DNA of 64,000 bases, taken from contig JANRKH010000021.1 of NCBI GenBank assembly GCA_033763595.1, forward strand, positions 886 through 64,885, written 5' to 3'. Positions 1,901-62,784 of the stretch are shown here, piece by piece; within the stretch, counting starts at the first letter, position 1, and the number at the start of each line of letters is the position of its first letter. Source of the DNA: Rickettsiaceae bacterium (GTDB lineage: Bacteria; Pseudomonadota; Alphaproteobacteria; Rickettsiales; Rickettsiaceae). A program made the translations under genes and the position numbers. The notes under the pieces were generated by a model. It saw only the letters and a program-made list of their open reading frames with translations. It was not told where the DNA came from and ran no database searches.

Positions 1901-2009
1901 ATACCAAATCCCATTTTTAAGTACTTTCTTCTAGCTCGTCACTCACCTAGCATTTAGTAGGCTTCGTGACTTGCTCCTAGTATTATTTAATTCTAGAGAT
2001 TTGGTATTA
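1901..2009 (-). repeat. palindromic repeat, family A (the only inverted copy in the window)
   Basis: ATACCAAATCCCATTTTTAAGTACTTTCTTCTAGCTCGTCACTCACCTAGC...AGGCTTCGTGACTTGCTCCTAGTATTATTTAATTCTAGAGATTTGGTAT. Lies between convergent kefB and argS. Confidence 0.9.
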
Positions 2010-2091
2010 TTTGCCTGTATTTTGTTATTTTGGGTTCTTTTGGTTTTTGATTAAGGATTTACTTTATAAAGCCGAGCTGCTTGATTTCAAA

Positions 2092-3855
2092 TCACATTTT
2101 GTTAAGTGGGGTAATTCCAAGTATTAATAAACCATTTCTAATCACAAGCTCAATTGCGCTTATGAGCACAAGCCTTGCGGCTGAAAGCTTAGTATTATCA
2201 CTCAAAAATTTATAATCCTGATTTTCCTTGCCCATGTTCCAAAAAGCATGAAAAGATGAAGCAATATCTTGTAGATAGTAAGGTATTTTATGGATTTCTC
2301 CGGTTTTGGCAGCTTGTTCAACTATGCGCGGAAATAGCGAAAGATCCCTGATTATCTCTATCTCAACATCCAAAGTAAGTAAGCTCAGGTCATATTCCGA
2401 TCTTATGAATTTCTCATATGTTTCTTGAAAATTTTCTTTTGCATTATTAAGCGAAGAAAGGGCTCTAACTCTTGCGTACTGAACATAATATACCGGATTT
2501 TCCTTTGAAAGTATCTTTGCGGTGTGAAGGTCAAAATCAAGTATAATGTCATTCTTTCTAGTAAGCATCATAAATTTTAGTACATCAGCCCCAACTTCTT
2601 TGACGACATCAGATACTGTCGTAAACTGACCAGCTCTTTTGGACATTTTTACTGGCTCGTTATTATCCATTAAATTCACCATCTGGCAAAGCTTTACTTC
2701 GCAAGTTGCGCTCCCATTGCTCAAAGCTTTGTATAGGGCTTCAAGTCTTTTGACATATCCTGAATGATCCGCGCCAAGAACTATTATGTTTTTAGAAAAT
2801 CCCCTTTCGATTTTGCTAAGTGCATAAGCTGCATCTCCTGCAAAATAGGTCCATGAGCCATCTGATTTTGCAAGTGTTCTATCCTGATCGTCACCAAATT
2901 CTGTTGACTTGAAGAGTAACTGCTCTTTAGGCTCCCAGTCTTTATCCTCCTCGCCTTTTGGCGCCTCAAGTAAGCCCTTATATATTAGCCCTTTATTTGT
3001 TAGTATCTCGATTGCTTTTTCTATCATTTTATCATCATGAAGTTTTTTTTCCGAGGAAAATACGTCATGAAATATCGAAAGATCCTTTAGATCAGATTTG
3101 ATGATTTTTAATATACGCTCTAGTACTATATACCTAAATTCCAGCAATTTTGGAGTTGGCTCAATCCGCATATCGAAATTTTCATCAAGGTCTAGAAATT
3201 TATCTCCAAATTCTTCCTTAATAGAACCTGCAATATACTTTAAATATTCACCTGGATAAAAACCAGATGGGATATTTATTTCATATCCAAATACTTCTCT
3301 ATATCTTAGAAGGCAAGATTTTAGTAATACTCCTATCTGATTTCCTGCATCATTTACATAGTATTCTCTAACTACATCAAATCCACAATTTTCCATTACG
3401 GATGAGAATGCTTCGCCGTAGATCGCAGGTCTTGCGTGTCCAACATGCATGGGGCCGGTAGGATTTGCTGATACAAATTCTACATTCACCCTTTCTCCTT
3501 TTCCTATATTTGTTTTGCCAAAATTAGTACCAGTATCTAAAATCGCCTCTAAGATTTTATGCCATAAATTTTTGGTTAGGGTAAAATTAATGAAACCTGG
3601 ACCTGCGATTTCTATATTCTGAAAAATGCTTTTCTGGGACAATTTTTCGCGAATATACTCCGCTACTTCTCTAGGATTCGTTTTGCAGTAATTTGCGATA
3701 ATTAAAGCTGCGTTAGATGAAAGATGTCCAAATGATTTGATTCTAGGAATTTCTATCGCTATTTTATCAAAAACATTACTGTTGATAGTATATTTGCCTG
3801 CCGAAGCTTCGTTTATGAAACTTTTGAGCAGTTCATATATATTATTATATTGCAT
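2092..3855 (-). CDS. argS: arginyl-tRNA synthetase
   Basis: Class I signature SANPTGPMHVGHARPA (HIGH) and KMSKRAG (KMSKS loop). C-terminal anticodon-binding domain ends in ...LNKM, as is typical for ArgS. Confidence 0.95.
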   Translation of the reverse strand: MQYNNIYELLKSFINEASAGKYTINSNVFDKIAIEIPRIKSFGHLSSNAALIIANYCKTNPREVAEYIREKLSQKSIFQNIEIAGPGFINFTLTKNLWHKILEAILDTGTNFGKTNIGKGERVNVEFVSANPTGPMHVGHARPAIYGEAFSSVMENCGFDVVREYYVNDAGNQIGVLLKSCLLRYREVFGYEINIPSGFYPGEYLKYIAGSIKEEFGDKFLDLDENFDMRIEPTPKLLEFRYIVLERILKIIKSDLKDLSIFHDVFSSEKKLHDDKMIEKAIEILTNKGLIYKGLLEAPKGEEDKDWEPKEQLLFKSTEFGDDQDRTLAKSDGSWTYFAGDAAYALSKIERGFSKNIIVLGADHSGYVKRLEALYKALSNGSATCEVKLCQMVNLMDNNEPVKMSKRAGQFTTVSDVVKEVGADVLKFMMLTRKNDIILDFDLHTAKILSKENPVYYVQYARVRALSSLNNAKENFQETYEKFIRSEYDLSLLTLDVEIEIIRDLSLFPRIVEQAAKTGEIHKIPYYLQDIASSFHAFWNMGKENQDYKFLSDNTKLSAARLVLISAIELVIRNGLLILGITPLNKM

Positions 3856-3857
3856 AT

Positions 3858-5006
3858 TTAAAAATTAGTATTTATAGAAAAGAATGAATTATACTCGTCT
3901 AGAGCATATCTATCAGTCATGCCTGCAATAAAATCTGCTATAACTCTTGCTTTTTTTGTTTCTGATAAATTCTTAGTACGATTGAACCAATCTGGTGGTA
4001 AGCAGTCATTATTGTGAAAGTATAAATCGAATAATTCTCTGATAATTTTTTTGCATTTGAATCTAATCAAAATAATTCTATGGTTTTGATACACTTTTTC
4101 TTTTAAAAAAGCTCTAAGGATTTTAATTAGTGTAACCACATCTTCAGAAAATTCTACAACTGGCTTGCCTAGGCGCCTTACTTCATCGGATGTTTTTATA
4201 TTATTAGTTTGTATATTTTCTCTAGTTTTTGCGAGTAAATCTTCTATGAAAATATGCGCCAGTTCTCTTACAATTTCAAAAATAATCCTGCTTTTACTCA
4301 TTCCAGTGAATTTAGATGTAACGTTGCTTACGATTTTGTCTATCACATTAAGAGATCCTAGTTCATCAATTGTTATCATCCCTGCCCTTACTCCGTCCTC
4401 AAGATCATGACAATTATAAGTTATGTCATCCGAAAGAGAAGCGACTTGTGCTTCTATTGATGAATATTCATAAAGCTTTAGATCGCTAATCATGTTATAT
4501 TCAGCTATAGCTTCCGGTATTTCGCCTGTTAAGGGACCATTGTGCTTTGCAATGCCTTCGAGCACTTCCCAGCTGAGGTTGAGTCCGTCGTATGCGCAAT
4601 ATCTCCTCTCTAATTTTGTGAGAAGTTTTATCGCATGAGAATTATGACAAAAACCTCCGTAGTCTTTCATGCATTCCTTCAGCACATCTTCTCCAACATG
4701 TCCAAATGGAGTGTGACCAAGATCATGTGCAAGCGCGATACATTCAGCTAAGTCCTCAGACCCTCCAAGATCTCTTGATATAGATCTTGCGATCGCTGCA
4801 ACCTCAATTGAATGAGTTAGGCGGTTTCTATAGTGATCTCCTTCATGGTTAATAAAAACTTGCGTTTTATACTGTAGTCTTCTAAAGGTATTTGAGTGTA
4901 TTATCCTATCCTTATCCCTTTGGAATGCGTTTCTATAAGGCGTAGGTTTTTCCTCGTATAGTCTACCCTTTGAGTTTTCTGGATCAGATGCATATGATGC
5001 TAACAT
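3858..5006 (-). CDS. dgt: dGTP triphosphohydrolase-like HD-domain protein
   Basis: HD-domain motifs HSIEVAAIARS and LAHDLGHTPFGH. Length is 382 aa. Stop lies 2 nt from the argS start, so the two are likely an operon. Confidence 0.9.
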   Translation of the reverse strand: MLASYASDPENSKGRLYEEKPTPYRNAFQRDKDRIIHSNTFRRLQYKTQVFINHEGDHYRNRLTHSIEVAAIARSISRDLGGSEDLAECIALAHDLGHTPFGHVGEDVLKECMKDYGGFCHNSHAIKLLTKLERRYCAYDGLNLSWEVLEGIAKHNGPLTGEIPEAIAEYNMISDLKLYEYSSIEAQVASLSDDITYNCHDLEDGVRAGMITIDELGSLNVIDKIVSNVTSKFTGMSKSRIIFEIVRELAHIFIEDLLAKTRENIQTNNIKTSDEVRRLGKPVVEFSEDVVTLIKILRAFLKEKVYQNHRIILIRFKCKKIIRELFDLYFHNNDCLPPDWFNRTKNLSETKKARVIADFIAGMTDRYALDEYNSFFSINTNF

Positions 5007-61686: not shown

Positions 61687-61909
61687 AGAATCTTATGCCC
61701 CTGCAAACCTTAGTTCCTGAGGGGTCATTTGCAGTCAAAAATTCCTAGGTTCTTCTTATTGGTTAAGCTTGGAACTTTAGTTATTGGATTTGGCGCTAAT
61801 GTGTTTATTCTGCATATAAATTTTTTTTAAAAACCTTATTGTATTTTATTAACTTGAGATTAAGATAATATATCTAATATACTATAACTAAATAATATTT
61901 ATTGTACTT

Positions 61910-62524
61910 ATGCCAACAGGTCCACAGAACCCAGATCCCCAAAAAAAAGAAAAGACCATTCTTGGTTTCGATAAGACACATGTTTCATATATAGGCCTTG
62001 CAATTTTTGTTGGCGGGGTTATTTTTTCAATACCTACTCTGGGGTATGTGATTCCACTGACTCTAATTGGTGCATTTGCCGCTTCAAGACCAAAAGATGT
62101 TGCAAAATTTTTTAGAACTCTTTTTAGAGTGGACGAAGGTAAGTCTTTAGCTAAAGCCCAAGATCTTGTTAGGGAGAGAAAGATTTTTGGCATTCCAGAG
62201 GATAGATATGTTTTACTAGGAGGTGTAGCTGCTTTAACAATTGCAGCTGTAAGTTTTGCATTCGGAGGCATTCCTTCTGCTGCTATTGCGGTTGGAGCTG
62301 TTATGTCTCTTAAATCAGAGGAAATTGTTGAGTCCCCAAAATACCTAAAATCAGCGATGACAAATCTTATACCTAGCTTTACCAAACAAGTTGAGAATAT
62401 ATCTAGGAGCTTAGAAGATCTTCCAGGGCCTGGTAGTACAAATCTTACTCGAGCAAATACTAGAAAGAGAGCCGAAAAAGATCGAGTGGCTGATACTCCC
62501 ACACAAGGTCAAGAAAGAAAATAG
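61910..62524 (+). CDS. hypothetical membrane protein with two paired hydrophobic hairpins
   Basis: 204 aa. The plus frame shows RNY-type codon periodicity and plausible composition. Hairpins are YIGLAIFVGGVIFSIPTLGYVIPLTLIGAFAA and YVLLGGVAALTIAAVSFAFGGIPSAAIAVGAVMSL. Basic C-terminal tail. Confidence 0.6.
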   Translation: MPTGPQNPDPQKKEKTILGFDKTHVSYIGLAIFVGGVIFSIPTLGYVIPLTLIGAFAASRPKDVAKFFRTLFRVDEGKSLAKAQDLVRERKIFGIPEDRYVLLGGVAALTIAAVSFAFGGIPSAAIAVGAVMSLKSEEIVESPKYLKSAMTNLIPSFTKQVENISRSLEDLPGPGSTNLTRANTRKRAEKDRVADTPTQGQERK

Positions 62525-62681
62525 ATCTTTAGCATAGACCCTCCTGAATAACCAATCAAATTTTTAGGAATTTTTTGAAAAATTCGGGAAAAAGCTGCCA
62601 TATTCAAAATATCACGAGACTCGCTGGAAAAACTTTCTTGACAAAATAATAGCTCTAGCTGCGAGGTAATGAGCCCGTCTA

Positions 62682-62784
62682 ATACCAATCTCTAGAATTA
62701 AATAATACTAGGAGCAAGTCACGAAGCCTACTCTCGTGTTAAGTGAGCGACGAAGTATAGTACTTAAAAATGGGATTTGGTATA
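62682..62784 (+). repeat. palindromic repeat, family A
   Basis: ATACCAATCTCTAGAATTAAATAATACTAGGAGCAAGTCACGAAGCCTACT...GTGAGCGACGAAGTATAGTACTTAAAAATGGGATTTGGTATA. Confidence 0.88.

Follow-up and report, generated by a model that had tools for sequence, protein, structure and literature searches.

In this work we have asked what the palindromic repeats are that crowd the spacers of a stretch of Rickettsiaceae DNA, by what means they spread and why so many of them point in the same direction. The stretch, called the window below, comprises 64,000 nt (contig C21:886-64885) of a 1.35-Mb genome assembled in 70 contigs (35% GC, 95.6% complete). Its VirD4 protein shares 72-76% identity with its counterparts in uncultured aquatic Rickettsiaceae and 67% with that of Candidatus Megaera polyxenophila, and on the basis of these identities the source organism would be an uncultured, environmental member of the Rickettsiaceae and not a Rickettsia proper. 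An earlier reading of the window, referred to here as the original prediction, described four modular families (A to D) of mobile repeats resembling transposable elements of the miniature inverted-repeat type (MITEs) or Rickettsia palindromic elements (RPEs), and explained their common orientation either by mobilisation through single-stranded DNA or by selection as 3' hairpins or terminators. The mobile nature of the repeats is borne out by their inverted-repeat ends, fixed target-site duplications and nested insertions. We find that these families, together with a fifth, E, are MITEs, non-autonomous and gene-less, which fall into three classes according to their ends, and we consider it likely that they are moved in trans and that the orientation bias seen in families A and B results from selection.

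Family A was checked by repeat finding, BLAST and alignment, and a de novo census was made by all-against-all BLAST of the intergenic DNA followed by iterated profiles. The census recovered all four predicted families and the fifth one, whose ends are like those of D and which had not been listed before. Profile searches of the whole genome gave 197 full copies of A, 61 of B, 78 of C, 66 of D and 26 of E, besides 67 partial copies of B and 34 of D, and the repeat-masked DNA amounts to about 88 kb, or some 6.5% of the genome. In the window, where about 25 copies covering 2.5-3 kb had been counted, there are 30 matches with a total of 3,280 bp, 23 of them full-length. Among these are eleven full copies of A (ten on the plus strand and one, at 1893-2010, on the minus strand), four of B (+,+,+,-) with two partial ones, four of C (+,-,+,+), three of D, all minus in the orientation of the model, with two partial ones, and one full and two partial copies of E. 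The consensus lengths are about 105 nt for A, 102 for C, 140 for B, 155 for D and 150 for E. As expected of MITEs, the units are thus shorter than ~500 bp and carry no transposase coding sequence, the only Pfam matches coming from neighbouring genes, and each family has 26-197 full copies in addition to recognizable insertion events. No Rfam family matches any of the repeats, and both strands of the elements fold into strong hairpins (z ~ -5.5). For annotation, it matters that repeats making up ~6.5% of the genome generate spurious open reading frames (ORFs) and fragment the assembly.

The terminal inverted repeats of class I (families A and B) are TACCAAATC[C/T]C...GGGATTTGGTA, the right end of which can also be read as G[GA]GATTTGGTA. 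Those of class II (D and E) are AGACCTC[T/C]CC, and class III (C) has an inverted repeat of 23 nt starting TAGTCTTTTAGG. Copies of A are flanked by T-W-A (W being A or T), followed by TACC...GGTA and again by T-W-A. In 93 of 109 copies the two flanks have the same central base (TAA..TAA in 49, TTA..TTA in 44), and mixed flanks, which would be expected if the triplets were simply part of the palindrome, occur only five times. Since the central base matches on both sides and mixed types are rare, the flanks of A represent a 3-bp TWA duplication. The same central base, as well as the TGA/TGA and TCA/TCA flanks of copies from the parent clade described below, rules out a TA duplication around an element reading ATACC...GGTAT. 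Nine of the eleven A copies in the window show the 3-bp duplication, family B has the same ends with the same pattern, and TWA duplications are found at 135 of the 193 A and B copies. Family D is flanked by A-N-T on either side of AGACC...GGTCT; of 47 copies, 27 have two identical triplets, and among those reading A-N-T on both sides the middle base agrees in 27 and differs in nine. Every copy of C is flanked by TA.

Mobility can be read directly from the genome, in which about 30 copies sit inside other copies. We used these nested insertions as an empty-site test, with the consensus of the host family as the empty site. A is inserted in A at TAA and in C at TTA, and D in B at AGT and ATT. 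C is inserted in D, in A and in B, each time at TA and with a net gain of one TA against the host consensus. Because the host consensus gives the empty site, these junctions prove both the insertion and the length of the duplication. Inverted-repeat ends combined with duplications of fixed length are the mark of cut-and-paste transposition by a DDE transposase and not of the REP (repetitive extragenic palindromic)/RAYT or IS200/IS605 systems, and we propose that each of the three end classes would be moved by a DDE transposase supplied in trans.

Which transposases could these be? For class I, matches to PF13358 above the cut-off lie at the ends of three contigs (C23, C52 and C53) and belong to one multicopy element of the IS630 family (NF033545). 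Two ORF pieces score 85.8 and 93.4 bits against NF033545, each below the 100-bit cut-off for the whole protein because the gene is split, and a run of nine A residues (A9) lies between the two reading frames. The element has a 30-bp inverted repeat, TACCATTTCCAT[A/G]AAATAACATTACAGATA, beginning with TACCATTTCC, which is exactly the left end of one B subfamily, and its three visible flanks are TAA, TTA and TTA. Relatives with 55-63% amino-acid identity occur in several copies in complete genomes from another genus. The relative in one of these, G142, is ~1.1 kb long, keeps the A9 run and has the inverted repeat TACCAATTCCCAAATTTAATTTAGTA; aligned by hand, its first 20 positions include 17 that agree with the left end of A, and 11 of 11 agree with the right end of the B subfamily. 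Nine of eleven intact copies in G142 and G141 have identical 3-bp direct repeats (TTA six times, besides TAA, TGA and TCA). This clade of the IS630 family duplicates 3 bp (TNA), just as the class I MITEs do, which is unusual for the family. The canonical duplication of IS630/Tc1-mariner elements is TA. Class I belongs to a non-canonical subgroup of IS630 because its duplication, in the MITEs as in the parent clade, is a 3-bp TNA instead, and the class I MITEs would derive from this clade. Scans of metagenomes with the protein and the inverted repeat of the class I parent gave no match. Beside one IS630-family copy (G142:C1:505201-506361) the reverse strand joins the left and right flanks of that copy by a single TTA, an arrangement suggestive of an inverted duplication that contains an unoccupied copy of the target site.

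Sharing of ends with an insertion sequence was also found for class II, in this case with an IS5-family element of a congener. DDE_Tnp_4 (PF13359) is absent from the genome studied here and present in the congener G002, where an element of ~965 bp ends in ...GTTTCCGAAGAGGTCTAAT compared with GTTTTTCGAAGAGGTCTAAT in D (in a longer reading, ...TAGTTTCCGAAGAGGTCTAAT compared with AAGTTTTTCGAAGAGGTCTAAT). A second copy in G002 has the end GGTTATGCAAGAGGTCTA, to be compared with GGTTATGCGGGGAGGTCTA in E, and pieces of the protein of the element match NCBIfam transpos_IS5_4 (NF033581). Class II would therefore, by its ends, derive from an IS5-family element with DDE_Tnp_4, and D and E appear to be old orphans in this genome. 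The IS5-family parent of D in the congener (G002:C29:1-965) is itself interrupted by a family C MITE and its reading frame is broken. Another element of that genome, on G002:C6, has an E-type left end (TAATAAACCTCTTGCATAACC) and a B-type right end (GATCATTTAAAAATGAAGATTGGTA), adjoins a fragment of an rve-type integrase gene and may be a chimera of two end classes.

For family C we found no parent in this genome, and no C-type ends among the DDE_3 loci of its relatives. Because its 77 copies are essentially identical, such a parent must exist or must have existed very recently. A complete IS630-type element on contig C30 was rejected as a candidate, as its inverted repeat (TAGCTAACGCAGTATAAAA) shares only TAG with C. 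The DDE_Tnp_1 elements of the genome (nine matches) were rejected as parents of the MITEs because their ends differ: the one on contig C60 ends in AACCTCAGTTTGACGTAAGA, and the one at C19:15957-16813 ends in GGCTCTGTGTACATTTCT and lies within a CTAG site. Six long, diverged DDE_Tnp_1 copies (C61:2874-4451, C26:1315-2901, C34:68-1630, C2:688-2352, C48:14577-16061 and C47:2-1579) are not plausible parents either; they encode ~495-555 residues, are 66-77% identical in nucleotides where alignable and have no relation to the ends of the MITEs. ORFs enclosed by two MITE ends at a distance of 0.4-4 kb were of no use as candidates, too many such pairs arising by chance at this density of repeats. The IS630-, IS5- and other DDE_Tnp_1-type transposases of the genome lie outside the window's contig, in which the whole-genome searches for PF01609, PF13358, PF13359 and PF01797 gave no match; no transposase search specific to the window was made.

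The original prediction also held that ends and cores are exchanged between families, and this survives proper alignment. The cores of A and C align over 50 nt (z = 11.9 against shuffles) although their ends and duplications differ, whereas A and B have 19-24 nt in common at each end and unrelated interiors; in D and E only ~10 nt of the ends agree. The core shared by A and C thus spans two classes which presumably answer to different transposases. Family A consists of two subfamilies (52 and 37 typed copies), and ~28% of its copies are mosaics; whichever two of the four marker blocks are compared, all four combinations occur. The occurrence of all four combinations indicates recombination or gene conversion between A copies. 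We suggest that the modular appearance of the repeats would arise from ends shared within a class, from the core hairpin common to A and C and from recombination between the A subfamilies. The families also differ in age. Median identity to the consensus is 100% for C, 89% for A, 79% for D and 77% for B, and the 77 near-identical copies of C represent a very recent burst.

More questions are raised by the orientation of the copies. The strong bias noticed in the window is real genome-wide for A and B, and absent for C, D and E. In spacers between co-directional genes, copies with the same orientation as the genes outnumber opposite ones 69 to 27 in A (p = 2e-5) and 30 to 4 in B (p = 6e-6), compared with 17:16 in C, 10:12 in D and 3:9 in E, so the bias persists when orientation is referred to transcription. 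The remark that the flanking genes of the window lie on both strands was misleading; from ~18.8 kb onwards most of them are on the plus strand, and the single minus copy of A in the window lies in a convergent spacer. The bias further depends on where in the spacer a copy lies. Within 30 nt of a 3' end, 25 copies of A have the same and 21 the opposite orientation, while at 60-200 nt upstream of a start codon the numbers are 33 and 10, which points to the gene downstream of the element. It is independent of the residual spacer length, and polarity inside operons can for this reason be dismissed as its sole cause. Copies whose orientation disturbs the downstream gene, by polarity or by antisense or outward transcription, would be purged. 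We infer that selection acts against one orientation of A and B through the gene downstream.

Could the bias and the spread of the elements have other causes? If they moved via single-stranded DNA in the manner of REP/RAYT or IS200/IS605 elements, their orientation might reflect the strand exposed at the replication fork. The repeats are indeed long hairpins, abundant and mostly intergenic like the elements of those systems, and the orientation of A follows the local GC skew weakly (85 copies concordant, 53 discordant). However, of the cases in which skew and gene direction are in conflict, 15 of 19 in A and five of five in B agree with the gene, 20 of 24 together, and because the elements follow the gene where the skew disagrees, the bias of A and B tracks the direction of transcription and not that of replication. 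REP units are 20-40 nt long, compared with 100-160 nt here, and elements associated with IS200/IS605 palindromes insert 3' of a fixed tetra- or pentanucleotide. Single-strand systems make no duplications, have no long inverted-repeat ends and need a Y1 transposase, and all three features fail here: there are TWA, TA and ANT duplications and inverted-repeat ends, insertion sequences of the IS630 and IS5 families exist that have such ends and duplications, and the search for a RAYT or IS200/IS605 tnpA that had been proposed gave no match to PF01797 in six frames of this 95.6%-complete genome, while control genomes do match. We regard mobilisation of this kind as very improbable. The idea that the repeats are not mobile DNA at all but host regulatory or RNA elements copied by recombination accords with their strong folds and with the almost exclusively intergenic position of the copies. 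It is hard to reconcile with the duplications, the ~30 nested insertions, ends that match those of insertion sequences, the lack of any Rfam match and the patchy distribution among the genomes of the family (class I end pattern in 6 of 131, C end pattern in 6 of 131), and we give it practically no credence.

Two further explanations accept that the elements are mobile and concern the bias of A and B only. The repeats might be positively selected as stabilising 3' hairpins or terminators of the upstream gene, as the original prediction proposed. The hairpin strength on both strands noted above fits this proposal, and so does the position of the copies: those within 10 nt of a gene 3' end are ~1.8-fold more frequent than under random placement within the same spacers, in agreement with the predicted closeness to stop codons, and A is over-represented in convergent spacers (51 of 174 copies, compared with 23% of the spacer length) and under-represented in divergent ones (27 of 174 against 25%). 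Yet it is precisely in convergent spacers that orientation relative to the nearest gene is not biased (A 23:28, B 8:9), where a 72% preference would predict about 37 of 51, and the bias of A lies before start codons rather than near 3' ends. The terminator scan does not flag the elements themselves. The absence of bias between convergent genes speaks for effects on downstream genes rather than for terminators, and the proposal in our opinion has little to recommend it. Alternatively, the bias could be made at insertion, the class I transposase being directional with respect to transcription or replication, for example through contact with RNA polymerase or the replisome. This would explain why the bias is confined to the class I families, which share a transposase, and is absent from C, D and E, and it agrees with the lack of dependence on residual spacer length. 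On the other hand, relative to the element, both senses of the TWA target are about equally frequent (49 TAA, 44 TTA), no bias appears in convergent spacers although these are transcribed too, and the older B (77% identity to the consensus) is more biased than the younger A, 88% against 72%, with none in the very young C, as progressive purging would give. To our knowledge, directional insertion has not been described for IS630/Tc1-mariner transposases. We find it unlikely that insertion accounts for the data; most likely the process of insertion is not what gives A and B their bias, and both directional insertion and a 3'-hairpin function are less likely than selection through the downstream gene.

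Several points nevertheless weigh against three classes of MITEs moved in trans and sorted by selection. As regards the parents, the assembly of this genome contains no class I parent complete with both ends; the element is seen only where contigs end, and in one copy the C-terminal part is frameshifted. Of the first 10 positions of its inverted repeat only 8 agree with the main A and B ends, the sequences diverging after ~11 nt, and two of the eleven copies in the relatives have mismatched flanks (TAA/TTA). The parent of C was not found although C is the youngest family, and the only complete IS630-type element here, that of contig C30, has a different inverted repeat. As regards selection, the bias in divergent spacers taken alone (A 18:9 and B 3:3 relative to the nearest gene; pooled 21:12) is not significant, and in consensus scans of the parts shared by the copies neither a promoter nor a terminator specific to one orientation emerged convincingly. 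The selection account is also indirect. Besides age, sequence too sets C and D apart from A and B. Finally, genes were called by a crude longest-ORF rule, and GC skew was computed from windows of +/-10 kb on an assembly of 70 contigs.

Where do the elements lie relative to genes? Of the 28 A copies within 10 nt of a gene 3' end, 18 are cases in which the ORF simply reads into the element. We considered insertion at TAA stop codons as the reason for the closeness to stops and rejected it, as the duplicated target is the stop codon itself in only 7 of 193 A and B copies, by a rough estimate about what chance would give; the window has one such case, at 22996-22998. The observation that no copy interrupts an ORF is true of the real genes in the window and does not hold for the whole genome. 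In a GT4 glycosyltransferase (C27:4705-5913, minus strand) a copy of D occupies the interdomain linker in frame (residues 157-207); the orthologues of this enzyme in six relatives (G001-G004, G007 and G008) have 337-360 residues and lack this segment of ~51 residues. Another lies in frame near the C-terminus of RNase III (C59:6026-6892, minus strand) and adds the same ~51-residue peptide, NRPL..Q..AP.K.V...HK.HE...QL.LG.EFPEGSN in this frame. These are two clear cases among 66 D copies, and D copies overall are not preferentially open or of a length divisible by three.

How do these repeats compare with known systems? They are new members of a well-known kind, bacterial MITEs, whose version in the Rickettsiaceae is the RPE. 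Palindromic repeats have been known in Rickettsia since 2000 and ten families, RPE-1 to RPE-10, were described by Ogata et al. (2000, 2002; see the summaries in PMC10969869 and PMC3767692); the accounts of RPEs cited here name no mobilising enzyme. Like RPEs, the repeats studied here are palindromes of 100-160 nt that have proliferated in a Rickettsiaceae genome, and family D, alone among the five, is inserted in frame within protein genes and adds a conserved peptide of ~51 residues. Such insertion is what made RPEs famous (PMC10969869). In contrast to RPEs, most copies here are intergenic, and in the large, well-assembled genera of the family neither the consensus of A nor the end patterns of class I and C gave a match. 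Moreover, inverted-repeat ends, duplications and parents are clear here and figure in neither of the RPE accounts cited (PMC10969869, PMC3767692). Tying RPE-like repeats to parents of the IS630 and IS5 families gives a testable model for their spread in reduced intracellular genomes.

In being short, non-coding and multicopy and in having inverted-repeat ends, the repeats are alike to IS630/Tc1-mariner MITEs; the class I ends match the NF033545 element and C has the classical TA duplication, but class I and its parent duplicate 3 bp (TNA/TWA) and not TA. The eukaryotic Zator superfamily also makes 3-bp duplications. It has been linked to bacterial TP36 transposases, and 3-bp TAA duplications have been reported for eukaryotic Fot/pogo elements (PMC7386202). 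MITEs of the Tourist/PIF-Harbinger and IS5 type resemble ours in duplicating 3 bp, and the PF13359 domain of the class II parent is shared with Harbinger. They differ in that the TWA typical of Harbinger occurs here in the IS630-derived class I, whereas the IS5-type class II duplicates ANT and its parent is not found in this genome. BOX, ERIC, BIME and Correia elements are co-transcribed with neighbouring genes and have orientation-dependent effects on them. Like BOX, ERIC, BIMEs and Correia/NEMIS (reviewed in PMC10969869), the repeats are mosaics of shared modules, with the difference that here a core hairpin is carried between sets of ends with different duplications (TWA in A, TA in C).

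The distribution of the elements is patchy. Among 131 genomes of the family, the exact class I end together with TWA was found in six only: this one (125 times), G031 (11 times) and four that belong to another genus (one to three times); the foreign copies are B-like with TWA duplications, and diverged copies of A are present in three other genomes. This genome, G002 and two genomes from a different genus, G075 and G076, have C ends that are identical over 18 nt, and two of the six genomes with the C end pattern have a single match with one mismatch. Such a patchy distribution suggests horizontal spread. VirD4 identity is only ~70% even within the genus. That C ends identical over 18 nt cross genera whose VirD4 proteins are only ~70% identical, and in which housekeeping proteins have diverged far more than these ends, suggests a recent horizontal transfer of C or of its parent.

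Four aspects appear to us of some interest: the clean link between RPE-like repeats and parents of the IS630 and IS5 families, the IS630 clade with 3-bp duplications, the core shared across classes and the bias tied to downstream genes. Is it possible that the TNA-duplicating clade is a counterpart of Zator/TP36 and Fot, that it has been exchanged horizontally and that class I elements act on downstream genes depending on their orientation? We put this forward tentatively, as a rather doubtful combination of ideas. If it were true, the IS630 TNA clade would be exchanged horizontally among protist-associated Rickettsiaceae, class I would carry an outward promoter or a polar signal that modifies downstream genes, including the tRNA genes of the window, and the co-orientation of 72-88% would be a footprint of selection on gene expression.

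Within the window, the A copy with the class I ends TACCAAATC...GATTTGGTA at 1893-2010 (-) matches the profile with 114 bits and has a TAA/TAA duplication. It is followed by a partial copy of B, its left part, at 6024-6074 (+; 27.8 bits), and by a B element with TTA/TTA flanks at 12340-12478 (+), 141 nt upstream of the tRNA gene 12620-12701. A right-end fragment of A (14473-14510, +) abuts a further A copy (14505-14612, +) whose flanks are mismatched (TTA/TAA), its left neighbour being the end of the other element. Next come an A mosaic of the two subfamilies at 20254-20368 (+, TAA/TAA duplication), an A copy at 21931-22045 (+, TTA/TTA duplication), 106 nt upstream of the tRNA gene 22152-22224, and another at 22371-22488 (+, TAA/TAA duplication). 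The 77-codon minus-strand ORF 22068-22298 is spurious, as it overlaps a tRNA gene. At 22996-23146 (+), sequence and profile match show a C element (23010-23115, TA duplication) nested in a minimal class I palindrome of ~40 nt, whose TAA flank (22996-22998) is the stop codon of ORF 22639-22998. A gene for the bacterial small signal recognition particle RNA (23225-23319, -) adjoins a copy of family C.

A diverged A copy lies at 24830-24943 (+; 86.6 bits), a C copy found by its profile match at 25070-25175 (-) and an A copy with a TTA/TTA duplication at 25191-25311 (+). The junctions at 25338-25576 (contig coordinates 26223-26461) read as an E element (-) split by the insertion of an A element (25394-25511, +, TAA/TAA). 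The second E element, in the virB8-virB9 spacer at 26493-26620 (+), was found by profile match, and its right end extends beyond the profile. The open frame 26427-27026, called virB9, runs through this copy and is probably an artefact. In this frame the CagX domain begins at residue 94, and a start resembling a signal peptide (MGYPRGVVLALVV...) lies at ~26607. The likely start of virB9 is therefore at ~26607, in the degenerate right end of the E copy, and the element may contribute the start region. Just 3' of the virD4 stop, a B element at 31355-31622 (+) is interrupted by a C element (31487-31592, TA duplication).

A D element, GC-rich and with the class II ends AGACCTCTCC...GGAGAGGTCT, occupies 33625-33777 (-) and is abutted by a partial B copy at 33778-33874 (-), both recognized by profile match. 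At 34480-34585 (+) a C copy directly abuts an A mosaic (34586-34701, +, TTA/TTA duplication). B elements lie at 37408-37542 (+), 116 nt upstream of the tRNA gene 37659-37732, and at 45349-45486 (-), 7 nt upstream of the tRNA gene 45494-45567; the latter belongs to the subfamily with the left end TA[C/A]CATTTCC. An A copy with a TTA/TTA duplication lies between these two at 40697-40812 (+). Profile matches mark a D element at 45718-45886 (-) and a partial E copy at 48518-48580 (+). A cluster at 56987-57291 consists of a full D copy (57067-57220, -) flanked by partial D copies at 56987-57064 and 57221-57291 (+), and looks like D nested in D. The last element, an A copy with a small internal deletion at 62677-62789 (+), has a TAA/TAA duplication. 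All four tRNA genes of the window have a class I element within 150 nt upstream (three B, one A), and three of these four elements are co-oriented with the tRNA; this may be due to chance or to a preference for sites upstream of tRNA genes.

Around 12-20 kb of the window the GC skew turns from negative or near zero to positive, and genes are mostly on the minus strand from 2092 to 10449 and mostly on the plus strand from 18816. This switch of skew and strand near the trigger-factor gene (12999-14408) looks like a replication origin or a point of rearrangement. Outside the window the genome contains a further abundant repeat, tandem hairpin units of ~33 nt, TGTCATCCCC(TCGAAGG)AGGGGATCCAG, which amount to ~31 kb in total (arrays at C48:19702-20006 and C42:1-589, for example), as well as short tandems of TGTCATTCCCG; none of them lies in the window's contig. 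The GTCAT/ATGAC motif of the tandem units recalls RPE-4, -6 and -7 as given in PMC3767692.

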